Source of the DNA: an uncultured Holophagales bacterium
Lineage (GTDB): Bacteria > Acidobacteriota > Thermoanaerobaculia > Multivoradales > UBA5704
Direction: 5' to 3'
DNA length: 64,000 nucleotides
Assembly (NCBI GenBank): GCA_963842525.1
Contig: CAWJGT010000034.1
Location: 192,001 to 256,000, forward strand
Shown in pieces: positions 1-18,735 of this stretch (within the stretch, counting starts at the first letter, position 1; every line of letters starts with the position of its first letter). The notes beneath the pieces were generated by a model. It was given only the letters and a program-made list of their open reading frames with translations, was not told where the DNA came from and ran no database searches. A program made the translations under genes and the position numbers.

Positions 1-1312
1 CCGTAGCCTTCTCGGTCACCTTGTCCGGCTCCAGACGCTCGATCTTTGGCCCTGCGTTCTTCGCCTTGCCGGCTTCGTCCTTGCGCGGGTCGTTGCGCGG
101 CGTGAAGAGCGTCTCGAAAATGTCCTTGAGCTTGAGGGTGGCCGGCTCGTGGAAGAGCCCGATCAGTCCCGCGAAGGCGGCGACTCGGAGACAGTCAGCG
201 CCGGCCAGGGAGAAACTGCCCACGCCGAAACCAGCCCGGAAAACCAGGAACACGACTATGGCGACGAGCGCCGCGAGAAACGGCTTGAAGATGTACCACC
301 ATAACCAACTCGGGAGGAACTCTCGGTTTCCGACAAAGGTGGTGAACGACGAGATACCATGAATCATGCCCCCCAGAGCACCCATGAGGGCGAGCAGCAG
401 GAGTAGCGACGCGACGTTGGTTCGGCCGTCCTGGGTGCAGGAATCCGCAGCGTGGGAATCCGGCAGCACGGTGACCCAGGCCCCGGCGACCGCAGTGCCT
501 TCGAGGGTTCTGGCCAGGATCTTGACGGCCACGGGGCGCTCGATCCCGGCGGCCTCCACGCTGAACCGGGCCGTCTTCCCGGTCGGGTCGAGAGGCGTGA
601 GCGAGCCGAGCTCGGGGTCCAGCCACTCCACCTCCGGTCTGGCCTCTGCGCCCGCTGCGTCTGGCGTACGTAATCGGCTGAGCCTCGCCGTCAGATCCAC
701 GCTCCCGCCCGCAGGCACGCTCACGTTGACCGGCTGGATCGACAAGCCCAGATCGGGCGACAGGAAGACCTCAGCACGCCCGACCTTCGCAAGCTCTCCC
801 TCGGATCGGGTCTTGATCACGACTTTGCCGGGCGCTTGCAGAGGGCGAGGAGCCGTGTAGATTCCAAGCTTCGGCGACACCGTCGTGTTGGCGCTGAAGG
901 CCTGGGCCTCCCCTGGCGTGAGAGTCACCACGGGAGGGCTCAACCGCACCTCGTCCGGCTCGCAGCGCGGGCAGAGCTTGTGCCAGCAGGAGGTGACGAA
1001 GATCAAGAGGATCAGAAATACAGCCAGAAGGTAGCCACCCAGGAACTGGACCCAGAAGGAGTGCGGAGTCAGCTCGATGGCCGCGACCGCCGACTCACCG
1101 TCGGCCTTGGCGATCACGGTTACCTTCCGGCTGCGGAAGATCCGGGACGGAGCCGCGTAGACCCCCTCCTGGCTGAGTGCACCAGCCGAGCTCGGAATGT
1201 GAGACCACGTCACCCCTGCCTGGAGGCGTTTCCCGTCCTTGAAAGCTTCGAAGCTCTGGGTCTGGCCGGCGGAGATCGAGACACTCTTGGGACTGATCTG
1301 GAGCTCGGACAT
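1..1312 (-). CDS. Membrane protein with Ig-like repeats and C-terminal multi-TM domain (runs off window edge)
   Basis: Manual translation from ATG at 1312 (GGAGG RBS upstream): MSELQISPKSVSISAGQTQSFEA...VTWS...GVYAAP (Ig-like), a TM segment, further Ig-like repeats, then LMGALGGMIHGISSFTTFVGNREFLPSWLWWYIFKPFL. Open to position 1 and absent from the ORF track. Confidence 0.8.
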   Translation of the reverse strand, partial: MSELQISPKSVSISAGQTQSFEAFKDGKRLQAGVTWSHIPSSAGALSQEGVYAAPSRIFRSRKVTVIAKADGESAVAAIELTPHSFWVQFLGGYLLAVFLILLIFVTSCWHKLCPRCEPDEVRLSPPVVTLTPGEAQAFSANTTVSPKLGIYTAPRPLQAPGKVVIKTRSEGELAKVGRAEVFLSPDLGLSIQPVNVSVPAGGSVDLTARLSRLRTPDAAGAEARPEVEWLDPELGSLTPLDPTGKTARFSVEAAGIERPVAVKILARTLEGTAVAGAWVTVLPDSHAADSCTQDGRTNVASLLLLLALMGALGGMIHGISSFTTFVGNREFLPSWLWWYIFKPFLAALVAIVVFLVFRAGFGVGSFSLAGADCLRVAAFAGLIGLFHEPATLKLKDIFETLFTPRNDPRKDEAGKAKNAGPKIERLEPDKVTEKAT

Positions 1313-1385
1313 GTAAGGCCTCCTGCGGGCATAGACGGACCGGAACTCCAGATTCCCCTTCACTCCGAGTTACACTTCCCCTCGT

Positions 1386-3149
<1,764 letters not shown>

Positions 3150-3256
3150 CGCTGAGAACAATATCTATACATCCAATTGTCGATCCGTCGCGTAACCCCT
3201 TGTGAACCCGAACGCCGGACGGCGTCCGGGCAACTCACAGAAAGGGGTTAACTCCA

Positions 3257-3814
3257 ATGAATGGAAAGAAAATGCTTGGCGCCCTGCTGGCTCTGGCGGT
3301 GATGGTGGTACCGATGCAGCTCCTGGCGAAAGACAACCCGATGGTCGGCGGTGCAGCCATGTACACCACCAAGGACATCATCGACAATGCCGTCAACTCG
3401 GCCGACCATACAACCCTCGTCGCCGCGGTCAAGGCGGCCGGCCTGGTGGATACCCTCAAGGGCAAGGGGCCGTTCACCGTCTTCGCACCGACCAATGCCG
3501 CCTTCGGCAAGCTGCCGGCCGGCACCGTCGACACTCTGCTCAAGCCCGAGAACAAGCAGACCCTCACCAAGATCCTGACGTATCACGTGGTCCCCGGCAA
3601 CGTCGACTCCGCCGCGCTCGCCAAGATGATCAAGGCCGGCAACGGCAAGGCCACCCTCAAGACTGTCGAGGGCGAAACCCTGACCGCCATGATGACTGGC
3701 AAGAACGTCGCTCTCAAGGATGCGAAGGGCGGCACCTCCACCGTGACGACCGCCGATGTGTATCAGTCGAACGGCGTGATCCATGTCATCGACAGCGTCG
3801 TGATGCCGAAGTAG
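3257..3814 (+). CDS. Secreted fasciclin (FAS1) domain protein
   Basis: Signal peptide; TLVAAVKAAGL, FTVFAPTNAAF, ILTYHVV, NGVIHVID motifs. Confidence 0.93.
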   Translation: MNGKKMLGALLALAVMVVPMQLLAKDNPMVGGAAMYTTKDIIDNAVNSADHTTLVAAVKAAGLVDTLKGKGPFTVFAPTNAAFGKLPAGTVDTLLKPENKQTLTKILTYHVVPGNVDSAALAKMIKAGNGKATLKTVEGETLTAMMTGKNVALKDAKGGTSTVTTADVYQSNGVIHVIDSVVMPK

Positions 3815-4090
3815 TCGGCTTCCCGCCAACACTCTCCCAGCTACACCAGGCAGACGGCAGCAGGGTGCGAGTAGGTCACCCTTGGCTGTTGCTTTGAGCG
3901 ACGGCACTGTGGGCTCGCGTCAAGGGCCTCCCCCGGCGACTGCGTGGGCCTCTTGACGCGGGCCCACGCCTTCAGCCACTGGATCCACAGAGTGGTCTCC
4001 GAGGGCGTATGGCTGGTTCGCGGCGAGCCAATGACCATTCTGCCTGGCGGAGTGTTACGTCTCCAAGCGGCTATTGATTGATAGATGCCG

Positions 4091-4963
4091 TCAGTGCGGC
4101 TCAGGCTGCCGTTCTCTCTCTGGGACCTGGATCGCGTGGATCAACCTGGCGATGCTACTCTCGAAGCTTTCCTTCCTGAGATCCAGGGTCAGGTGCTCCT
4201 TCAGCCGCAAAAGGATCTCGCCGAGGTTGTTGCGCAGCTTGAAGAGACGCGATTTCTCGCTATTCAACTCGACCGGATCGAGCTTCTCTTCGGCGTACCG
4301 CGGCAGCAGCTCATCGATTTCACCGATTCTTGCATCGATCTCCTGCGTCGCGGTCAACCTGAAGCCTGGCTGGAAGAACCCATCATCAAGGTAGCAGGCG
4401 ATGAATTGCCTTCCTCGATCGAATCTCCCATGCTCGAATGCCTGAATCGTCTCCATGGCCACCCAGGCTGAAAGCAGGCTCGTCCTCGAAACCAGCGAGA
4501 CGGTGACATCGGCCTTGGCAATGGAATCCTTGATGAAGCTCTCGATCCCTTCGCCGGCTCTCATCGCCTTGTCGTCGATGAGCACGACGACTCCGGCCGA
4601 TCGGAGGGCCTGCGCCAGCCTCTCGGCAGCCTCACGATCGTGGTGGCTGTACGAAATGAATGCCTGCTTGGCGCCAGTAGTTTCCTGAGTAGGTGGGGCG
4701 TTGGCATCCGGCGCTTCCAGGATTTCAGGGAGCAGGTCCAGAAGCGCATAAGCTACCTTCGTGCGGATCAGGCTCTCCTCGGTGCCGGCGAGGAGCCCCC
4801 GTCGCACCTGCTTCCGGCTGCGCTCGAGGGTCCTACCATGCTCGGTGAGCTCCGCAATGAGCTCGGGATCCCGCTTCCCCAGAAAGGCGAGCAGACGGTC
4901 CACCGTGCCCTCCAGCTTGTCGGCACGAATCAACGCTGTAACTTCGTCTCGCAGGTCGGCCAT
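4091..4963 (-). CDS. EAD11-like effector-associated domain fused to TIR domain
   Basis: N-terminal helical domain ending RRGLL...EESLIRTKVAYALLDLL, then AFISYSHHD...SLLSAWVAMET (TIR with conserved Glu). The start codon abuts the upstream stop. Confidence 0.8.
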   Translation of the reverse strand: MADLRDEVTALIRADKLEGTVDRLLAFLGKRDPELIAELTEHGRTLERSRKQVRRGLLAGTEESLIRTKVAYALLDLLPEILEAPDANAPPTQETTGAKQAFISYSHHDREAAERLAQALRSAGVVVLIDDKAMRAGEGIESFIKDSIAKADVTVSLVSRTSLLSAWVAMETIQAFEHGRFDRGRQFIACYLDDGFFQPGFRLTATQEIDARIGEIDELLPRYAEEKLDPVELNSEKSRLFKLRNNLGEILLRLKEHLTLDLRKESFESSIARLIHAIQVPERERQPEPH

Positions 4964-6487
4964 TCAGACCTCGGCTGAAGGTTGTTTCTGGGCGGCTCGC
5001 AACCGCCTCCACTTCGCCATGAGACTCTCTTCCGTGACGTACTCGTGAATCAGATAGAGGGGTGCGAGCAGTGAGAGCACCGTATAGACCATAATTGGAA
5101 TAAATAATAACGAGAACCATCCACTCGTTCCCCATAAAAGAATACCGCTGATCAACCCCGAGACAGTTAGCGTGCCGCAGCCGGTTCCTAAACGTAACGC
5201 CTTTCTTTTCTTGAACCTTATCTTCTCCTGCCTTTTTCCCTCCTCATGTTCCAGCAACTCCGCTTCCAGGCGCCTTTGCTTGGCCCGCAGTATAGGGATC
5301 ACCAGGCTGTCATGGCTCACTTCGTAAGCGTAGCCGCCGCCGGCGTGAGGCTCGGCACGAATCAGATGGGTGTCCACGAGACTGCGGAGGAGGTCGGCTC
5401 CAATCTGATAATTCCTCTGAATTTGGCCCTCATACAGGCTCAGACGACGCTTGTCGTCTTCGAACACCAATCCATCCTCGATCAGTATCCTTGCCGCTTT
5501 CTGCGCATTGGCGGGCAGCTTCTGGATACTGCGTTCGTAATAGCTCTTATAGATCTCCTCCAGGTCCCCGATGTCAGAGGATTCTATATAGGAATCATTT
5601 TGCCTAAGGACGATCTCCTCCTCTACGTGCTGGCAGAGGATCTGAAGCTGAAAGGATTCGATATCCGTGGCCCCGTCCTTGGAGAGGAAGCTCAGTATTC
5701 TGCCGAGGGATTCCTGCTCGTAGGAGAAAGGCGGCGACAGGAAATCACCCTGCTGTGCCGCCGGAAAAATGATCGCCTTCTCGGCCTCGTTGCGAGACAA
5801 GTTGTTGAGCTCAAAACAGTTGCGTAAAATATTCGGCAGCCAGGCAGACAGAGATTCGATATGGCTCATCTTGTCCGAGCGGATGGAAAGGAGAGCCATC
5901 ACAGGGGGCCCGGCCTTGAGAAGCGCCCATTCCTCTTCGGTGAGAAGGGTCGGATCGTAGCGCGTGCGGAGCTGAAGCGACCGGCGGAAACTTTCGGGCA
6001 TGCGGTCGTAGAGCAGATCGGCGAGTGCTTCAGCAAAGTCGCCGACTCCCTGGGGAAATGAGAAAAGCTCCTCGAATTGATCGAACACCAGGAGAATCGC
6101 GCGCTTGTCGGGGTTATCGAGCTGAATTCCCTTGAAGCACTGCCAGATGGAGGGAACCTCCTCGACTCGGGAGAGAAAGTTGTCGCCAGAAGAGATCTGC
6201 AGGAGTCTCTGCTCAAAAATTACTTCGGGCCGCGGCGTGACTCGGGGTATGTAGCTGGTGAAGCGAATCGGAATGGTCAGATAGTTGTGCTCTCTCCCGA
6301 GCAGGGGCACCACGCCGGCGTTGATGAGGGACGACTTGCCGAGGCCGGACCGCCCGTAGAGCACTGTCAGCGGCTCGACCCGAATCTGGGTGGCGAGCTT
6401 CCGGATATCCTCATCGCGGCCGAAGAAGACAGAGCTGTCGTCCGATGTAAAGGGTCGCGAGCCTGGGTAGCGGGGACGTTTCTCCAT
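4964..6487 (-). CDS. nSTAND1-type NTPase with C-terminal transmembrane helices
   Basis: RYPGSRPF...FFGRD, Walker A GRSGLGKSS, LVFDQFEELF, LSIRSD, FQLQILC, YEVSHDSL; hydrophobic C-terminus. Start taken at MEKRP (6487). Confidence 0.88.
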   Translation of the reverse strand: MEKRPRYPGSRPFTSDDSSVFFGRDEDIRKLATQIRVEPLTVLYGRSGLGKSSLINAGVVPLLGREHNYLTIPIRFTSYIPRVTPRPEVIFEQRLLQISSGDNFLSRVEEVPSIWQCFKGIQLDNPDKRAILLVFDQFEELFSFPQGVGDFAEALADLLYDRMPESFRRSLQLRTRYDPTLLTEEEWALLKAGPPVMALLSIRSDKMSHIESLSAWLPNILRNCFELNNLSRNEAEKAIIFPAAQQGDFLSPPFSYEQESLGRILSFLSKDGATDIESFQLQILCQHVEEEIVLRQNDSYIESSDIGDLEEIYKSYYERSIQKLPANAQKAARILIEDGLVFEDDKRRLSLYEGQIQRNYQIGADLLRSLVDTHLIRAEPHAGGGYAYEVSHDSLVIPILRAKQRRLEAELLEHEEGKRQEKIRFKKRKALRLGTGCGTLTVSGLISGILLWGTSGWFSLLFIPIMVYTVLSLLAPLYLIHEYVTEESLMAKWRRLRAAQKQPSAEV

Positions 6488-6497
6488 GACAGTTGAC

Positions 6498-7592
6498 TCA
6501 CTCGCCGGGCGGCGGCAGTGCCTCATCGATGATGGATGTCAGTTTCTCAGTCGTCCGGGCGCACTCGACGTCTATGTCCTCCTGCTTGATCTGCCCTCTT
6601 CTCCTGTCTTGCAAGAACCGGTTGTAGTGTCCGGACAGAGTGATGACCTCATTGAAGAGACTCCGATCCCCCATCTCTTCGAGGTGGTCCGCCAACGGCT
6701 CGAATAGGCCCTCTATTTTCCCCTGCTTGAGAAGATCGAGAAGGCGCTCGCGTAAGGAGAGGAGGGGCGCCTCCCTGATCTCGCGAAGCTGACCGGCACT
6801 CTCGCAGTGCCTGTAGAGGCTGTCGACGTACTGGACTACACCGGAATCGATGAACTCCAATCCGTAGTTTCGTCCGTAGAAGTCGCGGAGCTGGGCAGGT
6901 GTAAGGTTCTCGGGCTCGGCGGCCTGGGAAGGTTTCTCGCGGCTGAGGCGGAACAAGTTGAGGAGAAGATGGAGATACCACTTCTGGAAGTCGAAGCCCA
7001 AGAAGATGAAGTAGCTCGCCTCTGATATGACCGTCCGCAGCTCATCGGGGAGCTTGAAGTCGCGGATGACGGAAAAGACGAACTGGATGAGATCGGTGTG
7101 AGTCAGGATGAGTGAGGCGTCATCCTCGATGCTGCCAAAAAGGTTGTAAAGCAGGGGGCATTCCTTGGATGGCCGGCCAACGGGTTCCGGAGTGCTCTGC
7201 TTGGCGTAGTATGCAAATTCGTGATCGATCCCGAGCTCGGAGAATGCCGCGGGCAGGACCAGGTCGGGAGTAAGGGAGATGATCAGGTGGGCGGGAATCC
7301 GAGCGAGTTGCCGGTGGAAGTCATTGGGACCGGAGCTCGCGCTGTAGTATTTCTTGATCGGGGTGTAGAGCCGGCGCCTGGTGGCCTCGTCGCAGCGGTA
7401 GAGACCGTCGACATCCTCCGAGACTTGCAGGCGCTGATCGATTAGATGGGCCAGCAAGGCGGTCTGAATCGGCTCGCCCGCTCTGTTGGTGCCGACGTTG
7501 GGACCAAGCAGAATGACGCATCGCTCTTCGGCAAGGTTCTCGGCGATCTCGTCAATTGGTATAGCCATTTCCGCATGTTCCAACTGGTCCAA
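6498..7592 (-). CDS. SIR2-like domain protein with C-terminal EAD11-like domain
   Basis: CVILLGP, IISLTPD, LYNLFGSI, LILTHTD, FIFLGFDF (SIR2_2-like; the usual KxHG His is replaced by Phe). C-terminal LLDLLKQGKIEGLF...LSGHYNRF...GQI. Alternative ATG at 7568. Confidence 0.8.
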   Translation of the reverse strand: MDQLEHAEMAIPIDEIAENLAEERCVILLGPNVGTNRAGEPIQTALLAHLIDQRLQVSEDVDGLYRCDEATRRRLYTPIKKYYSASSGPNDFHRQLARIPAHLIISLTPDLVLPAAFSELGIDHEFAYYAKQSTPEPVGRPSKECPLLYNLFGSIEDDASLILTHTDLIQFVFSVIRDFKLPDELRTVISEASYFIFLGFDFQKWYLHLLLNLFRLSREKPSQAAEPENLTPAQLRDFYGRNYGLEFIDSGVVQYVDSLYRHCESAGQLREIREAPLLSLRERLLDLLKQGKIEGLFEPLADHLEEMGDRSLFNEVITLSGHYNRFLQDRRRGQIKQEDIDVECARTTEKLTSIIDEALPPPGE

Positions 7593-7797
7593 GAGGCTAA
7601 CAACGCTCCGGAGGCTGCTCCCCTTGGCCGAGAAGATCGAGTCTACTCACGCCGTGCGACGAGCAGCACCGGAATTACCAGTTGACTTTATCAGCTCTGT
7701 CCTGTTGTTGCAAGGCGGCCCCGCTTCGTGCGCAGCCTTTTACACCTGCCGAGCTTCGGCTGGCGGTACGGCGCGTTATCAATTCGGCTCGCGCAGT

Positions 7798-7910
7798 GAA
7801 GGCTGCTTCGAATACGTAAGGAACAGCATGCGGGCGCTGCGCCAGTCGGCGCTGGCAAGATGGCGGAGGGAGTAACGCCGTTTGAAGAGGTGGTGCTGGT
7901 GACGAGCCTT
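7798..7910 (+). pseudogene. Decayed duplicate of the gspE 3' end
   Basis: gaaggctgcttcga matches ~2919-2932. After an internal deletion, gcatgcgggcgctgcgccagtcggcgctg...gaagaggtggtgctggtgacg matches ~3051-3140. Confidence 0.85.
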
Positions 7911-7984
7911 TTACGAAGGAGCGTTTGGGTGTTCGGAGTCGTCGCCAGCGAACGAGATCGACCGGCCAGGTATCCGTTCCGTCG

Positions 7985-8088
7985 TGTCATCCTGAGCGTA
8001 GCGAAGGATCTGGAGGCAGGGCCTGCGAATCCGTTGCGGTCGTGCTTCCGGGACCCGCCACCGCCCAGATCCTTCGCTCAGGATGTCA
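7985..8088. repeat. REP-like palindromic element
   Basis: tgtcatcctgagcgtagcgaaggatctgg ... ccagatccttcgctcaggatgtca inverted arms; a related copy lies at 32430-32508. Confidence 0.8.
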
Positions 8089-8204
8089 GCTCGCTAGGTC
8101 CATCCTTGTCTTCCCCGGCGCAATCGCGATGGCGACCGCGCCTCCGCATCATTCGTCTCGTCCTCAGCAACATCGGCTCCGGAGTCCCGTCTATTTGTCT
8201 GTCC

Positions 8205-8510
8205 AAACCGATTTTTCTGCCAGGCTGAGTAGTTTTTCAGGCTACAACACCAAACATTCAGCTCTTCGGAGGAAAGATTCCGAGATGCCTCCGTGTGCGC
8301 GGTTGTGGCCTCGGAATCTTTCGTCTTGAGGCCCCAATCATTGGGAGCTCGACGCGAAAGGGGCGTCAGCCGGTCTCAATGAGGCGGAGCCCAGGTCTAA
8401 TGGCACGCCAGGGGCTCCTGAATGCGCAGGAATGTGCTTGAATGGCGCGGACGCAGGTCCCTATGCGCGGAAGGCATTCGCTTGAACCTTCGGCAGGAAG
8501 GAGAATGCTC
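8205..8510. repeat. Highly degenerate 21-bp periodic tract
   Basis: AA(T/A) motifs at 8252, 8273, 8315, 8336, 8357, 8378, 8399, 8441 and 8504, all in one 21-bp phase. Internal inverted repeat at 8272-8284/8310-8322. Confidence 0.5.
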
Positions 8511-8558
8511 CGGAGACCCGGACCGGCATCGCGCAGCCGGCTTCTGATGTGAAGGAGC

Positions 8559-8999
8559 TCAGGGCGAATCGTCGCCGCCAGCCTTCCGATAGATCGTGGC
8601 CCTCTGGCCGGCGCCGAGAGACTCGTGCTTCAAAATGTTCTCGCGGATGAGCTCCTCGAGGCATCGGTACAAGGTGCCTCGGTCCGGCTCGTAGCCGAGT
8701 GCCTCGCAAACCTCGGTCCGGGTGAACGTCTCCGGCAGTCGCGACAGCGCTGCGCGGACATCGGCATTCACCTCGGGTGCGCTCCGCCGGCGGGGTTGCT
8801 TGGGCGGAGGGAGTGGCGCGGCGAGTTGGGGAACGGAAGCCGGCACGGCCCCGGTGCTGCCATCCTCCTCCTCCTGGAGCATCCAGACCAGATCGAGGGC
8901 CCGCACCTGGGCCCGGAAGGCCGTCTCCAGAAGCTCGATGCCGGACCGAAGCTGCTCTTCCAGCCGTCGTTTGCGCTGCTCGTACTCATTCCTGGTCAT
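8559..8999 (-). CDS. Hypothetical protein: N-terminal coiled coil, Pro-rich linker, C-terminal winged-HTH-like domain
   Basis: MTRNEYEQRKRRLEEQL...; FTRTEVCEALGYEPDRGTLYRCLEELIRE resembles a winged HTH. Confidence 0.7.
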   Translation of the reverse strand: MTRNEYEQRKRRLEEQLRSGIELLETAFRAQVRALDLVWMLQEEEDGSTGAVPASVPQLAAPLPPPKQPRRRSAPEVNADVRAALSRLPETFTRTEVCEALGYEPDRGTLYRCLEELIRENILKHESLGAGQRATIYRKAGGDDSP

Positions 9000-9066
9000 T
9001 GTGCACGATTAGACCGGAATGCACGGAGCATTGCAAGAGGGACCGCCATCAGCCGGGAGAGAGCCC

Positions 9067-9489
9067 TTACGAAGGAGCTTTTCCCGCAGGCCAACGCTCC
9101 ACGGCCAAGATCCCGCTGGCAAGAATGATCTCCAGATCTCGGTCACGGACCAGAATGGAGCACCCATGCTCCTCAGCGAGCACTGCGATCAGACAGTCGA
9201 TCGTCGACCGGATCGTCTTTCCCTGCTGACGTAACGCTCGATAGAGATCAGCAGCCCGGAAATACAGCTCGATGCTCGCAGGCTCCAGGAATGTGAGATC
9301 CCGGAACAACTCAGCGAGCCGTTTTCGCCCCTTGTCTCTGCGCAATCCTTGGAAGACTTCCGCGACCACGACGCCACAGGTGCAGATCTCGTGATCGCTT
9401 GGGAACAGCTCAGCCAAAGCCCGCCGCTCAAGAGACGGATAGTCGTTGAAAAAGTCGACCCAGACAGAGGTATCGACGAGAACCTTCAA
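9067..9489 (-). CDS. vapC: VapC/PIN-domain toxin
   Basis: VLVDTSVWVD, VVAEVFQG, TIDCLIA, DRD PIN motifs; overlaps the antitoxin stop. Confidence 0.92.
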   Translation of the reverse strand: MKVLVDTSVWVDFFNDYPSLERRALAELFPSDHEICTCGVVVAEVFQGLRRDKGRKRLAELFRDLTFLEPASIELYFRAADLYRALRQQGKTIRSTIDCLIAVLAEEHGCSILVRDRDLEIILASGILAVERWPAGKAPS

Positions 9490-9689
9490 GCTTCCCGTCT
9501 CCGCCCTCGTAAGTCGTCCAGATCTCCCTCCCAGTGGACTTTCCCCTCAAATTCCAAGAATTTCTGCAAACGCCGACGCCGGGCGTATTCCCGGAGCGCT
9601 TCGTTGATGATGTCCGTCTTTGTCTTCCCAGGCGCGACCTTCATGGCGCTCGCGAGTGCTTCGGTATCGAGGTTGAGCGTGGTCCTCAT
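9486..9689 (-). CDS. vapB: VapB antitoxin
   Basis: MRTTLNLD...KTKTDIINEALRE...WEGDLDDLR, directly upstream of the PIN gene. Confidence 0.9.
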   Translation of the reverse strand: MRTTLNLDTEALASAMKVAPGKTKTDIINEALREYARRRRLQKFLEFEGKVHWEGDLDDLRGRRREA

Positions 9690-9756
9690 CGTTACCTCCG
9701 ATGCAGATCATAGGCTTCTATCATCTGCATCGCAAGACGTTGAGGGGCCTCCCGGC

Positions 9757-10644
9757 TCAAAAGGCATACCGGAGCTGGGCGAGGATGTTCCAGCGGCTCG
9801 CCAGCTCTCCGCGGCTCACCTCTTCCCAGACCGGAACCTGGATGGACAGGTCGAGGAAGAGGCGCTCCGTCGCGACGTACTGGACGCCGGGCGCGAGGAG
9901 GAACGCCGAGCGATCCGTCCCCTGGAGGGGCGCCCCGCGGAGGCGGTCTTTCCCTGCGTCCACGAACGTACCCTCGACAACGGCGAACACTTCGTGCCCG
10001 GGCTGGGTGTAGGCCCGTGGGAAGAGCACATACTGTGCGCTCAGGTTGAGCTGGGCTTCGTTTCCCCGGCGGTAGTCCCCGTCCCCTTCCGTGTTGTAGC
10101 GGTAGCCGGCATCCGCCGCGAAGACGAAGCGGCGGCGAGCCTGCTGGTAGACGAGATCGACCAGCCCGTCGGTCGAACCTGTCCCCGGTTGGAGCCGGGT
10201 CCGCAGGGCGACCGGCAAGCCAGGATCGACCGGCCGGTCGGTGGCTCCGCTGGGGAGCTTGAGCCCCACCTCGATCGCCGCGTGCCGGTCCGCCCACGGC
10301 CCCACCCAACGGTAGAAGCGGTGTTTGACCGAAACGACGACATCTCCCAACCCCGAGGCGGTTTCTGTCGGGGCTCCTGGCCGCTTGACGCGGCTCTCCA
10401 CCAGGTAGGGCACCCGCACGCCGAGCACCCAGTGGGTCGCCGGGGTGTAGCGCAGCTCCACGAACGAGGACAGCGTGAGGAGCTCGGTGTCGCCGCTCTC
10501 CTTCCGGTCCGCGATGACACCCGCCAGGAGGCCGCTCCGCTGGAAAACGCCCGTGCCCGGGGTGTTGGCCCGGATCGGGTTCGCCCCGGCGGCCCGCACA
10601 ACGAGCAAGGACAGGAGGAGGACGCCCCAGATGGCCGTCTTCAT
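9757..10644 (-). CDS. Outer-membrane beta-barrel 'transporter' (MetA-pathway/phenol-degradation-like)
   Basis: Signal peptide, SGLGDV, GLKLPSG, LQPGTGSTD, C-terminal LRYAF; ATGA-coupled to the upstream HMA-like gene. Confidence 0.8.
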   Translation of the reverse strand: MKTAIWGVLLLSLLVVRAAGANPIRANTPGTGVFQRSGLLAGVIADRKESGDTELLTLSSFVELRYTPATHWVLGVRVPYLVESRVKRPGAPTETASGLGDVVVSVKHRFYRWVGPWADRHAAIEVGLKLPSGATDRPVDPGLPVALRTRLQPGTGSTDGLVDLVYQQARRRFVFAADAGYRYNTEGDGDYRRGNEAQLNLSAQYVLFPRAYTQPGHEVFAVVEGTFVDAGKDRLRGAPLQGTDRSAFLLAPGVQYVATERLFLDLSIQVPVWEEVSRGELASRWNILAQLRYAF

Positions 10645-11159
10645 GGGCGTTTCTCCTCGGCCCGCGGCTCTTCGAGCAGGATGACCTCCTGCCGGTCCGC
10701 CGCTTTCCAGGACCCCGCCGCGGTCACCGGGCCGGCGGCATCGGCCTTCTCCCGCAGCATGCGAAGCCGTTGCTCTCCTTCGAGGCGAAAGACCTGTCCG
10801 GACTCCGGGACAAGCAGCCGCCCGTCCGGAGTCAGCGTGCCGGAGACTTCGATCCAGGTCCCTTCGATCTCATAGCCAGCCTTGGTGATCGCCGTTCGCA
10901 GGTCTTCAAGGAATACCGGCTTGCCCGGGCGCGGCCGGAAGGCGAAACGCCCGTTGGTGATGTCCTTGACCTCCATTTCCTTGGGGTCCGGGGCATATTC
11001 GAGACGGCGCACGGCCGCCTTGATCCCGTAGACTCAAAGGCCGCACAGATAGCCCGCCACATCGATCTCGATACGCCGCACCTCGGCCATTCCCGGAGCC
11101 GATCCGACGACGAAGGCAACCCCCGCGAGCGTAAGGATCTGACGAAACGTGTTCTTCAT
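10641..11159 (-). CDS. Secreted HMA-like metal-binding protein, probable selenoprotein (CxxU)
   Basis: ATG at 11159 with GGAGG RBS. MKNTFRQILTLAGVAFVVGSAPGMAEVRRIEIDVAGYLCGL-TGA(11036-11034)-VYGIKAAVRRLEY... continues in frame into ORF 10641..11012, with a hairpin after the TGA. Confidence 0.78.
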
Positions 11160-11237
11160 GACTTGGCCTCCTTATGGAACGGACACGGCTTCCCCGCCGC
11201 TACGAAGCGGCAGACGAAGTGTTGCTGCGAGCGGGTG

Positions 11238-11537
11238 CTATGTCAGGAACGCTCGCGGGACATGGAGGATGTCCCGGGGGTGCGGAGGCGGATTGCCGTT
11301 TTCATCCGCCAAGGCAAGACGGGCGCCTTCGACCGGCGTGAAGCCCGACCTGAGCAGGTCTGGAAGGGTCGAGACGGAGTGCAGGCAGCAGAGGGAAAAG
11401 CCGGTGGTCGCAGTGCCACAGGTGCCCGTCCGTCCCGCGCAGCAGTCCCCGCAGGAGACCGCCCCGGCCACGACCGGCCAGAGGACGCCGAGCACGACGA
11501 GGCTCAGGAAGAGCCATGCGAAGCGACCACGCCACAT
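11238..11537 (-). CDS. Cys-rich secreted leader peptide (CruR/CutF/DUF2946-like architecture)
   Basis: Signal-like N-terminus, SCGDCC...TC...LCC, C-terminal PPPHPRDILHVPRA; first gene of the HMA/barrel operon. Alternative GTG at 11558. Confidence 0.72.
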   Translation of the reverse strand: MWRGRFAWLFLSLVVLGVLWPVVAGAVSCGDCCAGRTGTCGTATTGFSLCCLHSVSTLPDLLRSGFTPVEGARLALADENGNPPPHPRDILHVPRAFLT

Positions 11538-11643
11538 GCCGCCGATAGAGTACACCACTCAGCGTGAAGAATGCGTTCGAAGGGTTTGCCGCCGCCTCGG
11601 AGCGCAGCCTACCCGCCTTGACGGAGGTCCGAAGCAATCCCAA

Positions 11644-11817
11644 TCAGGGCGGGTCGTCCATCGCGCAGCCCAGCGCGGTCGTGTTGCAGGTGCAGGAACC
11701 AATGCAGGTGAGACCCGTGCCCTCCAAAGCTGCCGCGACCTGCCTCAGCTTCGGGTCGTCGAGGATTCTGAGGGTCTCGATCGACAGAACCAACTTCCCG
11801 GTCCGCTCCTTTCGCAT
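11644..11817 (-). CDS. Lanthipeptide-like RiPP precursor
   Basis: AAGGAGG RBS; leader MRKERTGKLVLSIETLRILDDPKLRQVAAA; core rich in Thr/Ser/Cys (TGLTCIGSCTCNTTALGC). Confidence 0.65.
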   Translation of the reverse strand: MRKERTGKLVLSIETLRILDDPKLRQVAAALEGTGLTCIGSCTCNTTALGCAMDDPP

Positions 11818-12027
11818 ACCGCCCTCCTTTCGACATATTCGCACGGCAGTGGCAGGCCTATGAGCCCACCGTTGCTCCCTTTTGCCGCAGACGAGTATAT
11901 TCCCCGGTCAGCGCCCCTACCATACCTGAACCAAGAGAAGGAGAAGAGACACAGCCACAAGGATCCACCTCGACCCACTCCGCGATCTGCTGCAACGGGC
12001 TCTCGCTGACGAAGAGCCGCGTGGCTC

Positions 12028-12765
12028 CTACCCGTACGTCGGCTTCTGGGGCCAGCCGGGAGGCGAGTCCTCGAAGTCCTCTTGCCGGCCGTAGGGCGTC
12101 ACGTCGAGGAGGCCGTAGGCGGTGGTGAGCCCTTCGACGCCTCGGGCGTAGGCCGAGTAGGTGTGGAAGACGTTGTCGTCGAGGTGAAAGAAGACGCTCA
12201 GGCCGTGCCCTTCTCCTTCCGCGAAGTAATGCTCGCTCCTCGCTTCGAGCTCGGACTTGTCTCGAAAGTTGTACATGATGGGCGCGACCTTCTCGTCCAA
12301 CGTGACATGGAAGTCATAGTTGAAGTCGCTGCCGTAGGACGAGAGCCACGGCAGGCTCCACCCCATGCGCGCCTTGTAGGCCTCCAGCTTGGCCAGCGGT
12401 GCCCGGGAGATGAGCACCACCGTGGTGTCGCGTTCGTGCAGCAGCGACAGGTCCCCCAGGTCGTTCACAAAGGCTGTGCAGCCCTGGCAGCCTTCGTCCC
12501 AATCCGGGTCGAACATGAAGTGGTAGACGATGAGCTGGCGGCGGCCGTCGAAGAGGTCGAGGAGGCTCGCCTTGCCGTTGGGGCCCTCGAAGACGTAGTC
12601 CTTGTCGATCCTGACCATCGGCTGCCGGCGACGTTCCGCGTTCAGCGCATCGCGGCGATGGGTGAGCTCTTTCTCCTTGGTGAGCAGCGCTTTGCGCGCA
12701 GCAAGCCATTCGTCTTGCGAGACGATGTCCGGATGTGCGATTTGGGTCTCTGTCATGACTGCCAT
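12028..12765 (-). CDS. DUF899 thioredoxin-like protein
   Basis: [48 protein letters not shown]; AAGGAGG RBS before 12765. Confidence 0.92.
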
Positions 12766-12867
12766 GATGATTCCTCCTTGGCTTTTCAAGGACATACATA
12801 GGCAAAATCTGTGCCCCTCGGGCGGGGTGCTCCGCCTGGCACCCTACTTGCAAAATCGCTCGGAGGC

Positions 12868-15087
12868 ATGTCTGAAGCCGCCATTCGCCTGGGTTGGCCG
12901 GCCGCCTGGCTCGGTCCTTCGCTGCTGGTCACCAACGAGCAGGGGGAGTGCGGGTCCGCCCAGCCGCTCACCGGATTCTATGTCCGCGAGACCCGGCACC
13001 TCTGCACCCTGCGCCTCGAAATCGACGGCGTACCGCCCTGGTGCTGCGAGCGGTCGCGTTCCGAGGCCGCGCAGCTCGCCTTCGTCTTCGCCCACCCCGA
13101 GCTCACCCGCTTCGGCGGCGGCGGCAGCGGGGTCTCCGGCGACGAGGTGACCACCGACGAGCACGGCATCCCCTACCGCGCTCTCGATCTCCGGCTGATC
13201 TACCGTCTCGAGCCCCACCGTCTGCACGTCACCTTGCGGCTTCACAACCGCTCACGCGCCCGGATCGCTCCCGAGGTGGCCTTTATCGTCGCCGCCGACT
13301 ATGCGGACCTGCTCGAGGCGTCCGAGGACCGGCGCCAGCAGGAGGCCCCGGTCACGGCCACAGCCGCCGAAGGCGTCATCCGGCTCCGCTACGAGCACCC
13401 GCGGCTCGCCTTCAGCACCGCCATCCAGGGCTGGGGCAGCGGCCGGATCACCGTGGAGCCCCACCGGTGGGCGAGCCGGGTCGAGCTGGCGCCGCAGGCA
13501 GGGGCGACGTTCGAGCTGCAGGTCGACGCCTTCGACCCCGACCAGGAGATGGACGAGACCGCCCGCGCGGCGCGCCTCCACCACCATCGGCAATGGAGCG
13601 AGGGCCTCACCCGGGTCGTGGTGCCAGGCAACCCCCTCGCCGAGCGCATCCTCGGCCGCGCCAGCGCCGACCTGGCCTCGTTCCCGAGCCTCGAAGGAGA
13701 ACGCGACGAGTGGCTGGCCTTGCAGGCGGGCATCCCGCTCTACCCCGCCTTCTTCGGCCGCGACGCCCTTACCGCCGGCTGGCAGGGCGCGCTCCTTGAC
13801 CGCGGCGCGATGCTCGACGCGGCCCTCACCCGGCTGGGCAGGTTGCAGTCGGACCGGGACTTTGCCTGGCGGGACGAGGAGCCGGGCAGGATCCCGTACC
13901 AGGTGCGCTCGGGCCCGCTCGCCAGGCTCGGGGTCAACCCCTTTTCCGCCTACTACGCGGACTTCGCCAGCCCGTTGATGTACGTCATCTCCGTCGCCAA
14001 CCTCTACGCCTGGACGGGAGAGCGCACCGACATCGAGCGGCATTGGGGAACCGCCTGCCGCATCCTGGAGTGGGCCGGCACCTATGGCGACCGCGACGGC
14101 GACGGCTACCTGGAGTACCTGACCCGCTCCCCCGCCGGCACCAAGAACCAGGGCTGGAAGGACAGCGGCGATGCCATCGTCTACGAGGACGGACAAACGG
14201 TCCCGCCGCCGATCGCCACCTGCGAGCTCCAGGGGTACTGGTATGCGGCCCAGCAGCTCATGGCCGTGCTCGCCTGGGTGATCGGCGAGCGCCGCCGCGC
14301 CCGCGAGTTGTGGCGCTCCGCCCGCGCGCTCAAGCGGCGGTTCAACCGCGACTTCTGGGATCCGGAGGAGCGCTTCTACGGCCTCGCGCTCGATCCCGAC
14401 AAGCGGCTCGTGCGCACCGCGACCTCCAACGTCGGCCACTGCCTGGCAACCGGCATCATCGCCCGCGAGCACCTGCGGGACGTCGCCGACCGCCTCCTCG
14501 CTCCCGACATGTTCAGCGGTTGGGGCATCCGCACGCTGACGGCCCGGCATCCGGCCTACAATCCCCTGGGCTACCACCTCGGCTCGGTATGGCCGGTCGA
14601 GAACGCGACCATCTGCTTCGGCCTGAGGCGGATGGGGTTCGGCGCCGAGGCGTTGCGCGTGGCCGATGCGCTCTTTCGACTGTCGGAGCTCTACACGGGC
14701 GACCGGATACCCGAGTGCGTGGGCGGCTATGCGCCCGACGAGCACCCCACCCCAGGGTCCTACCCGCGGTCGAACAGCCCGCAGATGTGGAACGCCAGCG
14801 CCCTGCCGCTGGTCCTGCAGTCACTCCTCGGGCTCATGCCCTACGCCGCCCGGCACATCCTTCTCGTCGATCCGCTCCTGCCGCCCTGGCTCCCAACGGT
14901 CGAGCTGCACGGGCTCCGGATCGGCCGTGCCACCGCCTCGCTGCGCTTCTGGCGCGACGAGAAGGACCGCACGCATACCCGGGTCCTCGAACAGGACGGG
15001 CCGCTCCACGTCATCCGGCAGCCACCACCCGAGGCGGTCGGCGTGGGGCTGGGGCAGAGGCTCCGTGCGCTTCTGCCCTCCAGGTGA
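12868..15087 (+). CDS. Amylo-alpha-1,6-glucosidase / glycogen debranching family protein
   Basis: AGIPLY..FFGRD, EEPGRIP, NQGWKDSGD, CELQGY, SGWGIRTL, YHLGSVWP; GGAGG RBS before 12868. Confidence 0.9.
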   Translation: MSEAAIRLGWPAAWLGPSLLVTNEQGECGSAQPLTGFYVRETRHLCTLRLEIDGVPPWCCERSRSEAAQLAFVFAHPELTRFGGGGSGVSGDEVTTDEHGIPYRALDLRLIYRLEPHRLHVTLRLHNRSRARIAPEVAFIVAADYADLLEASEDRRQQEAPVTATAAEGVIRLRYEHPRLAFSTAIQGWGSGRITVEPHRWASRVELAPQAGATFELQVDAFDPDQEMDETARAARLHHHRQWSEGLTRVVVPGNPLAERILGRASADLASFPSLEGERDEWLALQAGIPLYPAFFGRDALTAGWQGALLDRGAMLDAALTRLGRLQSDRDFAWRDEEPGRIPYQVRSGPLARLGVNPFSAYYADFASPLMYVISVANLYAWTGERTDIERHWGTACRILEWAGTYGDRDGDGYLEYLTRSPAGTKNQGWKDSGDAIVYEDGQTVPPPIATCELQGYWYAAQQLMAVLAWVIGERRRARELWRSARALKRRFNRDFWDPEERFYGLALDPDKRLVRTATSNVGHCLATGIIAREHLRDVADRLLAPDMFSGWGIRTLTARHPAYNPLGYHLGSVWPVENATICFGLRRMGFGAEALRVADALFRLSELYTGDRIPECVGGYAPDEHPTPGSYPRSNSPQMWNASALPLVLQSLLGLMPYAARHILLVDPLLPPWLPTVELHGLRIGRATASLRFWRDEKDRTHTRVLEQDGPLHVIRQPPPEAVGVGLGQRLRALLPSR

Positions 15088-15224
15088 AGCGGGCGCTTCG
15101 AACGAGACTGGCCTACCACCCTGGCCCCCTAAATTGCCGCACGCCAGCCCCGCAGGGGCGGTCGGCCTCGTTGGGGTGAGGGTGCCGTGCCATGCCCCAC
15201 ATTCTACCCCCTTCCACGCGCAGT

Positions 15225-15690
15225 GGTCCCGCGGGACCGGCAACGCACACCGCGGGAGCAGCTACATCCCACCGCGGGGAGTCGAATCGCTGCCGCGGCA
15301 GCGGCAACGCCCACCGCGGCAGCAGCCACATCCACCGCGGAGAGTTCGAACCGCCGCCGCGGCAGCGGCAACGCCCACCGCGGCAGCAGCTACATTCCTC
15401 GCGGGGAGTTCGAACCGGTCCCGCGGGACCGGCAACGCCCACCGCGGGACCAGCTACATCCACCGCAGGGAGTCGAATCGCTGCCGCGGCAGCGGCAACG
15501 CCCACAGCGAGAGCAGCTCCATCCACCGCGGGGAGTTCGAACCGCCGCCGCGGCAGCGGCAACGCCCACCGCGGCAGCAGCCACATCCACCGCGGAGAGT
15601 TCGAACCGCTACCGCGGCAGCGGCAACGCCCACCGCGGGAGCAGCTACATCCACTGCGGGGAGTTGAACCGCTCCCGCAGGACCAGGTTC
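15225..15690. repeat. Tandem array of ~22 units of 21-22 bp, each anchored on CCGCGG, with a 63-64-bp higher-order period
   Basis: Cycling units cgcggcagcggcaacgcccac / cgcggcagcagccacatccac / cgcggagagttcgaaccgccgc. Confidence 0.92.
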
Positions 15691-15763
15691 GAAATCCCGG
15701 GCTAATTCCGACCGCCTCTGCGGGGCTGGCAATGTACCGCCGAGGCAGTCTGACAAAGTAGAA

Positions 15764-16282
15764 TCAGGCTGAGGGTGGCTTCTGAGGCCAGCGAGCGAAG
15801 TAGCCGTCGAGCCACACAAGATCGCGGTCGAAGTCTTCAGGGTCGAATGGTCCAGTTCGGTATGAGGTACCCTCAAAGACGCCGTCGCGACCAGGGCTGC
15901 GGATGCCGATCACGTTTTCGTTGCGAAGAGTGTCCTTGCGCTCGAGACAGAACTCGTAGGGGTTGCCCCAGGGATCTCGCTCCGGAAGTACCTTGATGTA
16001 CTGAGGCACGAGAACGGCTTGGAGCTCCTCGAACGAGGCCCGCGGACAGGATGGCCAGTCGATGGGCTGCTGCGCATCGTCGGCAGCGAGCGCAAGTGCG
16101 CCGGCCGGAGGCGCCTCAGAGATCTGGTCCACCAGCCACGCCATCATTGCGGTTCCGATGTACCGCATATCTGCGATGGCGCCTTTCTGGGCTGCGCCAT
16201 TGTCGGCAGGTCTTTCAGCGGCAGATGAGAGGCCGGGGATCGCCAGGCACCAACTCAATGCGAGGAGCGTAACTCTATTCAT
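15764..16282 (-). CDS. Secreted protein with type II secretion GspG-like C-terminal domain
   Basis: Signal peptide; ADMRYIGTAM...LVPQYIKVLPERDPWGNPYEF...IRSPGRDG. No prepilin GFTLIE motif. Confidence 0.72.
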   Translation of the reverse strand: MNRVTLLALSWCLAIPGLSSAAERPADNGAAQKGAIADMRYIGTAMMAWLVDQISEAPPAGALALAADDAQQPIDWPSCPRASFEELQAVLVPQYIKVLPERDPWGNPYEFCLERKDTLRNENVIGIRSPGRDGVFEGTSYRTGPFDPEDFDRDLVWLDGYFARWPQKPPSA

Positions 16283-16342
16283 AGTGCATCTCCTATAGCC
16301 ACGATGTGAGGTGAGCTCTAGCGATTATCGCGCCGCCTAGCA

Positions 16343-16594
16343 GAGAAACGCTATCACGCCGCCTCGGACGCTCGACCTAGGTGCCATGCAGGTCGAGGAC
16401 CAGGAGCGGCAGGAGGCCGAGGATGGCGCAGCCTGCGGTCATCAGCTTCGGGCGGACGCGGCCGATGCTCGCTTCGCGCAGCGCGTCTTCGAAAGGCCTC
16501 CCCTCGGCGAGGAGCGATCGGGTCTGGGCCACCAGGACGAGGCCGTTCTGGACCGCGATGCCGAAGAGGCCGATCAGCCGACCAGGGAGGAGAC
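16343..16594 (-). pseudogene. Decayed duplicate of the czcA 3' end
   Basis: Matches ~18783-18805 (stop region) and, after an internal deletion, ~18942-19168, with scattered substitutions. Confidence 0.9.
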
Positions 16595-16665
16595 CGCCCC
16601 CGGAGGCGGTCGGCGTAGGGTTGGGGCAGCGGCTCCGCGCGCTTCTGGCCCCCAGGTGAAGCGGG
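16595..16665 (+). pseudogene. Decayed duplicate of the debranching-enzyme 3' end
   Basis: PPPEAVGVGLGQRLRALLAPR* versus PPPEAVGVGLGQRLRALLPSR* at ~15022-15093, including the post-stop agcggg. Confidence 0.9.
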
Positions 16666-16688
16666 ACGGAGAGAGGGGTCCGCGGGGC

Positions 16689-16716
16689 TTGCTTGACCAG
16701 CCCGTCGGGTTATACT
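16689..16716 (+). promoter_or_regulatory. Putative sigma70 promoter for the MazEF-like operon (possibly leaderless mRNA)
   Basis: TTGCTT-N16-TATACT ending 6 nt before ATG 16723; no obvious SD. Confidence 0.45.
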
Positions 16717-16722
16717 TGCGGT

Positions 16723-16959
16723 ATGAAGACGGCAATCTCAATTCCCGACGACGTGTTCGAAGAGGCCGAGCGCCTCGCCACCGAGTTGCAGACCTCTCGC
16801 AGCCAGCTCTACAGCCGTGCGCTGCGGGAGTTCGTGGCCAGGCATTCCACCGATCGCCTGACCGAAGCGATGAACCGAGTGGTCGACGAGGTGGGACCGG
16901 AGATCGACGAGTTTAGCCAGAAAGCCGCCTATCTAGTTTTGGAGCAAGTCGAGTGGTGA
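16723..16959 (+). CDS. RHH antitoxin (MazE/ChpI-like)
   Basis: MKTAISIPDDVFEEAERLA...SRSQLYSRALREFV; overlaps the toxin start. Confidence 0.88.
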   Translation: MKTAISIPDDVFEEAERLATELQTSRSQLYSRALREFVARHSTDRLTEAMNRVVDEVGPEIDEFSQKAAYLVLEQVEW

Positions 16960-17297
16960 TCAGCCAAGGCGAGATCTGGTGGGCCGACTTGAGGGAGCCA
17001 ACCGGATCAGGCCCTGGGTATCGGCGGCCAGTCGCCGTCGTACAGTGCGATGCGTTGAATCAAAGCCGGGTGGGCACGGTCGTATGTGTGCCGCTCACGA
17101 CTAATTTGAAGTGGGCAGACGCACCCGGAAATGTGCTCCTGACGGCAAGAGTGACGGGACTTTCAAAGGACTCATTCGCGAATGTCTCGCTGATTGTCGC
17201 CGTCGACAGACGGCAGATGACCGAATGCGTCGGCAAGCTGCCGCGGCGCCAATTGGAACTGGTGCTCGCAGGTATCGACACCGTTCTCGGGCGATAG
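16953..17297 (+). CDS. mazF: MazF/PemK-family toxin
   Basis: QGEIWWADL..PTGSGPGYRRPVAVVQ, VPLTTN, PGNV, GLSKDSFANV. Confidence 0.92.
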   Translation: MVISQGEIWWADLREPTGSGPGYRRPVAVVQCDALNQSRVGTVVCVPLTTNLKWADAPGNVLLTARVTGLSKDSFANVSLIVAVDRRQMTECVGKLPRRQLELVLAGIDTVLGR

Positions 17298-17571
17298 GCT
17301 ACACCTCACTGCCTCCTGATGAACGATGACGCTGGGCAAGCGTGCCCGGCGAACGTTACGGTTGTGTTACGGTTGATCAGCGGCACGTGGGCGCGAGTCC
17401 ACGTGTCCTTTGTATCATCGTGTTATGCGGCGTCTCCTCCAGTACGTGTGCTGCTCCTTCTGGCAAAACCTGAGATCTCTTGAAACTCGCGCTCCAAGAG
17501 CCTCTCTAATAGCCCGGCACCTTTCCGCCTTTTCCGGTCGCAGGCACTTTTTTGGGAACAGCAGCGGCCGT

Positions 17572-18342: not shown

Positions 18343-18514
18343 AGTTGACAATTCCAAGAAAGGGCGGAGCCCCATAAGTGCCACCTGATTCTACAACTCG
18401 GAGCCCCCTGTGATCCACACCCATACGCATAAGAGCTACGAGGAACGACAGCCTTTAGGGCTTCTACCTACCCGCCGCATAATTCTACTTTGTCAGATTG
18501 AGCCCGGCTTGCGA

Positions 18515-18735
18515 CTGCCCCGAAGGGGCAAAGGCGTAAAGCCTGGGGTTTCAACCCCAGGGACCTCGGCCCCCATCCAATCCTCAGCCCCGAAGGGGCG
18601 ACGGCATGGGCGAGGGGCGCGAGCCCCGCCTGCGGGTGGATGGAATGCCTGCGCCCCTTCAGGGCTCCAGAAAATTTGAGGGCGCCAACCTGGCGCTGAA
18701 GCGCCAGGCTTTATGCCCAGGCCCCTTTGGGGCCT
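18515..18735. repeat. REP/MITE-like palindromic element
   Basis: gccccgaaggggc twice, cctggggtttcaaccccagg and cctggcgctgaagcgccagg hairpins, inverted outer arms. Confidence 0.75.

Follow-up and report, generated by a model that had tools for sequence, protein, structure and literature searches.

A candidate three-protein STAND conflict module with a degenerate SIR2-like partner and a single EAD11 pair in an uncultured Holophagales bacterium

The window analysed here is a stretch of 64,000 nucleotides from an uncultured Holophagales bacterium (assembly GCA_963842525.1, contig CAWJGT010000034.1, positions 192,001 to 256,000, forward strand). Three co-oriented minus-strand genes, arranged in the order g1-g2-g3, occupy window positions 4091 to 7592. 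They encode a SIR2-like protein, a STAND NTPase ending in a membrane hairpin and a TIR protein, and the first and the last also carry EAD11, an effector-associated domain (EAD). The sequence evidence gathered below makes it probable that the three products form a STAND (NLR-like) conflict module, most likely an immune system of the abortive-infection type. An arrangement of this kind had been proposed for the locus in an earlier sequence-only reading, whose claims are taken up where the corresponding results are given.

The g1-g2-g3 operon and its proteins

The translation of g1 (6498..7568, minus strand like all features of this section; 356 residues, P0001) joins Pfam SIR2_2 to EAD11. The product of g2 (4964..6487; 507 residues, P0002) is an nSTAND1 P-loop NTPase with a C-terminal membrane hairpin, and that of g3 (4091..4963; 290 residues, P0003) consists of EAD11, a TIR_2 domain and a helical C-terminal extension. 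The open reading frame (ORF) of g1 opens at TTG 7592, yet its homologues begin at the Met of MAIPI.., so that ATG 7568 is the likelier start. A spacing of 10 nt separates g1 from g2, and the TGA of g2 directly abuts the ATG of g3 at 4963; the ORF coordinates thereby bear out the tight operon, a 10-bp gap followed by an abutting stop and start, that the sequence-only reading had described. All four of its domain calls (EAD11, nSTAND1, SIR2_2 and TIR_2) were likewise found by Pfam, the EAD11 of g3 below the cut-off. NCBIfam contains no equivalog match for any of the three proteins.

The SIR2-like core of g1 spans residues 1-262 (6783..7568) and matches SIR2_2 at 31.2 bits (cut-off 24.5). A profile of the g1 family has ThsA (6lhx) as its best PDB match (E 3.4e-8), and Foldseek, queried with the AlphaFold2 model of g1, returns ThsA, DSR2 and KomC as top matches (E 1e-9 to 1e-6); the modelled core is predicted to keep the fold of these proteins. 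The residues at the sirtuin Asn and His positions are T100 and F144: T100 (in S98-L99-T100-P101-D102) stands opposite ThsA N112 (TTNYD), and F144 (in Y141-N142-L143-F144-G145) opposite ThsA H152 (YKMHG). Both residues that mark defence SIR2 NADases, the Asn of TTNxD and the His/Asn of HG/NG, are consequently missing from g1. Replacement of either N112 or H152 by Ala is reported to abolish NAD+ cleavage by ThsA (Ka 2020). The absence of the usual catalytic His (NLFG), to which attention had been drawn from the letters of the DNA, is therefore real and extends to the canonical Asn. Pfam recognizes SIR2_2 and EAD11 alone in g1, with no SLOG, Macro or other known signal-binding domain.

The nSTAND1 domain (PF20703) of g2 covers residues 7-396 and scores 110.1 bits (cut-off 27.1). 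Its Walker A (GRSGLGKSS, G45..K51-S52-S53) and Walker B (DQFEE, D136-Q137-x-E139-E140) motifs fall in columns that are invariant across 27 homologues. Beyond the NTPase a KKRK stretch precedes two hydrophobic helices, at about residues 431-451 and 457-480 (5048..5197), which are separated by a 3-residue loop and reach Kyte-Doolittle values of up to 2.11 in 19-residue windows. A tail of 27 residues follows, and both the hairpin and the HEYVTEESL motif of the tail are common to the closest homologues. The topology expected from the sequence is N-in/C-in, with no ectodomain. No repeat family was found at the C-terminus by Pfam, so that the earlier description of a STAND ending in transmembrane (TM) helices instead of a WD40/TPR sensor holds. 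Relatives of g2 usually possess one TM helix, 40-70 residues past the NTPase, and then a tail whose length varies from 72 to 1386 residues, and paralogues in the same genome bear WD40 repeats; for these reasons the hairpin-only g2 is best regarded as a putative reduced version of a membrane-spanning receptor.

The TIR domain of g3 (residues 102-212, 4328..4660) matches TIR_2 at 68.8 bits (cut-off 28). S104, D130, S165 and E171 are invariant in a family alignment of 15 members, E171 being kept in 15/15 within an invariant S..SAWVA.E motif. By manual count on the alignment these four positions correspond to S7, D33, S68 and E74 of Cat1, which are reported to line the NADase site and of which D33A, S68A and E74A are defective. 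The active site of g3 thus looks intact and the domain is a predicted NADase; the catalytic Glu said to be kept in this gene can be identified as E171. The best sequence match among solved structures is the bacterial SEFIR-type TIR 5y8e (E 2.7e-6). A helical extension lies past the TIR domain (residues about 213-285, 4109..4327; AlphaFold2 helices 201-225, 231-257 and 264-279) and is conserved in TIR homologues both with and without EAD11.

The two EAD11 domains lie at the C-terminus of g1 (residues 272-349, 6522..6755) and at the N-terminus of g3 (residues 4-80, 4724..4954). Pfam EAD11 (PF19964) scores 44.8 bits in g1 (cut-off 26) and 22.8 bits in g3 (E 9.3e-5), just under the same cut-off; close homologues of g3 carry a precomputed PF19964 annotation. 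Direct BLASTP of g1 against g3 aligns residues 269-329 with 1-55 but falls short of significance (E 0.33). When the EAD11 regions of the two families (full-length relatives at E <= 0.001: 21 clusters for g1 and 23 for g3) are compared profile to profile, they match with a probability of 98.5 % and an E-value of 1.8e-15 across 81 columns. The AlphaFold2 models share one four-helix pattern, with helices at 272-281, 286-299, 302-323 and 329-350 in g1 (model pLDDT 83.5) and at 2-13, 17-28, 33-54 and 60-82 in g3 (model pLDDT 85.4). The two helical domains of about 80 residues are homologous, and the similarity between genes 1 and 3 that the sequence-only reading had noticed is upheld by both comparisons.

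A scan of the whole 9.95-Mb genome with an EAD11 model yields 2 matches, both in this operon: the pair is closed and one-to-one. Five Bacteroidota genomes with related modules (those behind loci L020, L024, L036, L016 and L019) differ in this respect, as they contain 34, 6, 14, 31 and 29 EAD11 matches; the open frames that bear them span 81 to 1575 residues, which implies a large network of EAD11-tagged proteins in these organisms. Structure prediction for the EAD11-EAD11 complex of g1 and g3 returned a score of 0.43 against 0.00 for the best control, graded as 'weak support' on a scale whose pass mark is reached by 58/80 solved complexes and 2/110 mismatched pairs, and on which scores at 0.60 or under comprise only 7/80 solved complexes together with both mismatches that passed. 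At least 94 % of contacts are shared between the runs, and the partner has a pLDDT of 84 or more.

SIR2-like and STAND genes in other genomes

A scan with an alignment of g2-type STANDs, restricted to one genome per species, produced 520 confirmed relatives, and 80 listed loci among them were compared. In 76 of these 80 the STAND is immediately preceded by a co-oriented SIR2-like ORF that ends within about 200 nt of it. In two of the remaining four a CHAT protease is fused to the STAND N-terminus instead; a third lacks any such gene and the last is truncated at a contig end. The conserved core is the SIR2-like/STAND pair and not the triple, since EAD11-TIR genes often occur without a neighbouring STAND (see below).

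What the upstream ORF carries besides its SIR2-like core is variable. Pfam assigns EAD11 to 24 of 77 such ORFs, TIR to 33 (32 fused and 1 split), a nucleotide cyclase to 3, CHAT to 1 and EAD7, as a weak match, to 1, while 15 have no added domain. The cyclase is an N-terminal adenylate/guanylate cyclase domain on the SIR2-like partner (L045, L035 and L047). EAD11 and TIR share the same C-terminal place, and the comparison suggests that EAD11 stands where an effector is otherwise fused to the SIR2-like protein. The catalytic positions vary in parallel: Asn and His are both kept in 5/77 ORFs, all of them without an added domain, Asn alone in 3/77, and neither in 69/77, of which 60 have an added domain; these counts are drawn from related sequences and are not phylogenetically independent. 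In these counts, loss of the catalytic residues goes with the gain of an effector or adaptor domain, a pattern that fits replacement of the lost activity.

The SIR2-like core has 1423 relatives at E <= 0.001 in a set of 1.84 billion cluster representatives; 953 reach 1e-10 and 156 reach 1e-30. Seven proteins from 150 listed representatives were scanned for domains, and one of the seven, P0165 (1158 residues), joins nSTAND1 (35-386) through a Gly-Pro linker to two SIR2-like-EAD11 units in tandem and has no TM helix; it may be a genuine fusion or an artefact of gene calling. Two SIR2-EAD11/STAND pairs have another EAD11 gene divergent from them: an EAD11-CHAT protease gene at L039:2791-3984 (minus) and an EAD11 gene with an unknown domain at L015:2332-3180 (minus). 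Both loci have been grouped as cases in which the tethered effector is a protease rather than TIR.

The window genome itself harbours 8 further SIR2-like/nSTAND1 pairs, 2 with CHAT, 5 with TIR and 1 with an intact SIR2, and these are distributed over L153 (G000:C6:30000-42000), L154 (C20), L155 (C23), L156 and L157 (C9) and L158 (C22). The intact SIR2 has TTNYD and HLHG, and its STAND consists of a TM helix and WD40 repeats. The five SIR2-like-TIR pairs mostly have TM plus WD40 STANDs as well, and two of them are in tandem on C9. At L157:560-5662 (minus) a paralogous nSTAND1-TM-WD40 protein (1701-residue open frame) ends in GmrSD_N, the N-terminal domain of a restriction endonuclease (68 bits). 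Within this set only the pair formed by g1 and g2 uses EAD11. Read from its domain content, the set would constitute an NLR-like repertoire. Across genomes, the series from an intact SIR2 alone, through a degenerate SIR2 with TIR, to a degenerate SIR2 with EAD11 and the TIR in trans appears to document the conversion of an effector into a scaffold, and this series parallels the evolution of adaptors in animal inflammasomes.

The complete order SIR2-EAD11, STAND, EAD11-TIR was recovered from metagenomes. A scan with an EAD11-TIR alignment gave 47 loci, and the three genes stand together at L124, L127 and L129, and in cut form at L113; at the three-gene loci the STAND has a single TM helix and ends in a tail of some 345 residues. 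The genes therefore do co-occur elsewhere as a triple at these loci, though not at seven other assessable EAD11-TIR loci, as detailed below.

A proposed recruitment chain and its alternatives

We infer the physical contacts, enzyme activity, trigger and defence role of the module as follows. The g2 protein would be an NTP-driven switch, held at the cytoplasmic face of the inner membrane by its C-terminal hairpin. Its constant partner g1 would contribute a degenerate SIR2 fold as a docking or adaptor subunit, taking in trans the position of a STAND effector, and g3 would be the enzyme, its TIR domain tethered through its own EAD11. A trigger would cause NTP-dependent oligomerization of g2 at the membrane and thereby cluster the bound g1. 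EAD11-EAD11 contacts would then concentrate g3, whose TIR domains would self-associate and become active; NAD+ would be cleaved, resulting in depletion or in the production of a signal, and growth would stop. This is in essence the chain put forward in the sequence-only reading, from STAND to pseudo-SIR2 adaptor and from there by EAD11-EAD11 contact to TIR. It is favoured by the pairing in 76/80 loci, the exchange of TIR for EAD11, the loss of Asn and His and the architecture of P0165; the idea of a conserved three-gene unit has to give way to that of a conserved pair.

Several observations weigh against such a chain. A STAND adjoins EAD11-TIR in only 4/11 assessable metagenome loci (a locus counting as assessable when its upstream DNA is long enough or its STAND is cut), and 7/11 are without one; moreover, a second gene, EAD11-X, lies downstream of EAD11-TIR in 11 metagenome loci. 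Because of the loci without a STAND and those with EAD11-X, EAD11-TIR is probably a portable effector that serves more than one core. The EAD11 copies of g1 and g3 are only about 21-28 % identical and are therefore not a recently duplicated matched pair, and the predicted contact between them remains in the weak class. From its sequence g2 is a STAND without a recognizable sensor. PADLOC-DB 2.0 contains no model for g1 (0 families) or for the whole system, and no integrase, transposase, mobile, prophage or defence genes were recognized in the flanks. Finally, no member of the g1 family departs from G22, D102, N142 and G145, and the pocket may still bind nucleotide; loss of the His alone is no proof of an inactive SIR2, because PaAvs5 works with NG.

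The absence of repeats in g2 can be turned into a more specific proposal: that g2 responds, through its hairpin and juxtamembrane tail, to the condition of the membrane itself (injection of a phage genome, action of a holin, depolarization or lipid stress), with no repeat-bound ligand, and fires the TIR through a dead-enzyme adaptor that would be a functional counterpart of ASC. This refinement is speculative and we consider it unlikely, although if it were true no natural system would be better suited than this one EAD11 pair to prove that EADs recruit homotypically.

The invariant pocket residues lead to a different assignment of roles, also of low probability, in which the SIR2-like domain of g1 is not passive. 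It would bind nucleotide and either act as a second, non-canonical NAD-consuming enzyme or serve as a receptor that senses NAD+, or an ADP-ribose derivative made by the TIR, and exerts feedback on the STAND. Foldseek shows the fold kept in full, and the positions invariant in the 29 family members include P138, S152 and G191 in addition to the four named above. PaAvs5 is described as an active NADase that has NG in place of HG and retains TTNxD, and in type I Thoeris TIR and SIR2 are reported to form a signal-and-receiver pair. Set against this, Asn and His are both replaced in g1 whereas N112A alone is reported to kill ThsA, Pfam detects no domain in g1 to receive a signal, and throughout the 77 ORFs loss of Asn and His accompanies a gained effector or adaptor.

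The conserved hairpin and tail motif of g2, combined with its want of sensor repeats, would also suit a killing device, for instance a pore formed on oligomerization, with TIR and the SIR2-like protein placed before it to sense or to generate the signal, along Thoeris-like lines; membrane-disrupting effectors are described as common in TIR-signalling systems (type II Thoeris). This is improbable to a marked degree, as the TM helix of the relatives is followed by tails of very variable length, WD40 among them, which is how a sensor position behaves, and the exchangeable parts of the g1 partner are effectors of classical type (TIR, CHAT, cyclase, intact SIR2). Just as improbable is a role other than anti-phage defence (kin discrimination, cell death during development or some other regulated response linked to NAD in a soil bacterium with a large genome): Kaur et al. 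associate EAD/STAND systems with apoptosis-like processes and with bacteria of complex life style, and the flanks are free of defence genes and prophage, but TIR, SIR2, CHAT and STAND are parts of proven anti-phage systems, and the lack of close g1 relatives in other genomes of the phylum (see below) and the lower GC content of the operon fit a mobile defence gene set.

Described systems, surroundings and other EAD11 contexts

Bacterial STAND/NLR proteins are established phage sensors, and to our knowledge those described are single soluble chains. If the recruitment chain outlined above is true, the module would add to them a split design in which a dead SIR2 fold is the adaptor, and a membrane-anchored STAND without ligand-binding repeats. 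g2 does not conform to the classical tripartite NLR with effector, NTPase and repeat sensor in one chain, a possibility rejected on the grounds that nSTAND1 starts at residue 7 and the C-terminus is a TM hairpin.

The EAD idea and the nSTAND1 clade were introduced by Kaur et al. (2020, eLife, PMC7159879) and by Kaur, Iyer, Burroughs and Aravind (2021, eLife, PMC8195603); the comparisons below refer to the main text and readable supplements of these papers. The counter-invader systems of the 2021 paper resemble the present one in the NTPase clade to which g2 belongs and in the coupling of TIR, a caspase-like protease or an EAD to the NTPase. In those systems the STAND itself carries the effector or EAD at its N-terminus and a lectin-fold (FGS/NPCBM) sensor at its C-terminus, whereas in the window the EAD is borne in trans by a separate pseudo-SIR2 and the STAND ends in a membrane hairpin. 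No SIR2/nSTAND1 pair is contained in the text of the 2021 paper. The supplement of that paper does record EAD11, which retrieves only itself and has one recorded architecture; in the 2020 paper EAD11 is absent from the main text and readable supplements, and the PDF supplements may show more.

The EAD principle of the 2020 paper is matched by the operon: two copies in one operon, one on the core (C-terminal in g1) and the other on an adjacent enzymatic effector (N-terminal in g3), both protein-terminal. EAD11 replaces direct fusion of the effector exactly as the principle predicts. Since the genome has a single EAD11 pair and no paralogues of it, the locus would offer a first tractable case for testing the long-standing EAD hypothesis, which is computational only. 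The 2020 paper also treats the analogy to ASC-type adaptors. The likeness between g1 and ASC of the inflammasome is that of a non-catalytic adaptor linking an NLR to an effector via homotypic small helical domains, and it is an analogy only: there is no homology, the adaptor body of g1 is a dead enzyme fold, and EAD11 is a four-helix unit.

With type I Thoeris (ThsB, a TIR protein, and ThsA, SIR2-SLOG) the module shares the presence of TIR and ThsA-like SIR2-fold genes in one operon, ThsA being the best match of g1 in both sequence and fold. It differs in lacking SLOG, in the replacement of N112 and H152, in the STAND NTPase gene that lies between the two, and in a predicted coupling through EAD11 rather than cADPR. 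Membership of type I Thoeris was rejected in view of the missing SLOG, the lost catalytic residues and the absence of a PADLOC ThsA match. Avs5 and SAMD9 have a SIR2-like domain directly N-terminal to a STAND NTPase, an order that the window module reproduces and for which activation by oligomerization is expected; in SAMD9 the domain that precedes the NTPase is described as a 'variant Sir2-like domain'. Proteins of this type are reported to be single polypeptides with soluble TPR-type sensors, and the SIR2 of Avs5 to be an active NADase, whereas in the window module the SIR2-like part is separate and degenerate, TIR takes over its job, and the STAND is membrane-anchored. Membership of Avs was likewise rejected, as the PADLOC Avs/NLR models do not match. 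PADLOC, which the sequence-only reading had suggested as a check, named no known system from the three genes: g2 has P-loop-level matches only (best E 2e-4) and g3 matches generic TIR models only.

No description of a split membrane module of SIR2-like, nSTAND1-TM and EAD11-TIR proteins was found in the literature, in a search that excluded the PDF supplements of the two eLife papers. 'Transmembrane STAND ATPases' are named once in the accessible text, in another context, as sensors of protease-Pepco modules. As far as the sequences tell, the present locus is distinguished by a predicted TIR in trans, a hairpin-only STAND and a single EAD11 pair.

The GC content of the operon is 54-60 %, compared with 63-72 % in the flanks, where the genes are of housekeeping type: a T2SSE ATPase, an outer-membrane Phenol_MetA_deg protein, DUF899 and a glycoside hydrolase. 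Close relatives of g1 (query P0001, E <= 1e-10) are present in 0/400 other genomes of the phylum, at a threshold that sees close relatives only and that also missed the paralogous SIR2-like genes of the window genome. No tRNA was found in window positions 1-20000, no Rfam family in 1-16000 and no sigma-70-like promoter in 3800-8400; the latter interval contains 2 terminator-like sites, both on the wrong strand and fewer than in shuffled sequences. The approximately 2 kb upstream of g1 (window 7593-9750) are devoid of Pfam-matching ORFs and of Rfam families, and could be a promoter region or the remnant of a decayed insertion. No RNA sequencing runs are listed as carrying the locus sequence, and one soil-metagenome DNA run contains a small share of its sequence words.

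The metagenome loci also show EAD11 in other company. Genes that join EAD11 to 150-340 residues without a Pfam match often follow EAD11-TIR, with no STAND nearby, as at L104:970-2067, L117:782-2071, L126:639-1808, L128:2791-4092, L111:1909-2619, L119:4739-5476 and L115:4996-5493; loci of this type may represent a different EAD11-coupled core. The last of these genes closes a defence-like row (L115:759-5493) composed of a TPR-S protein, a patatin phospholipase, a SLATT_1/DUF4231 two-TM protein, EAD11-TIR and EAD11-X. At L100:63-3955 and L121:1292-5695 an EAD11 ORF or TIR gene adjoins an ABC_tran ATPase and a large Pfam-less protein, possibly a further EAD11 context. Directly 3' of the three-gene operon at L127 (5627-10938) lie genes for a DUF7379/LCAT-type lipase-like protein and a CHAT-TPR-S protein.

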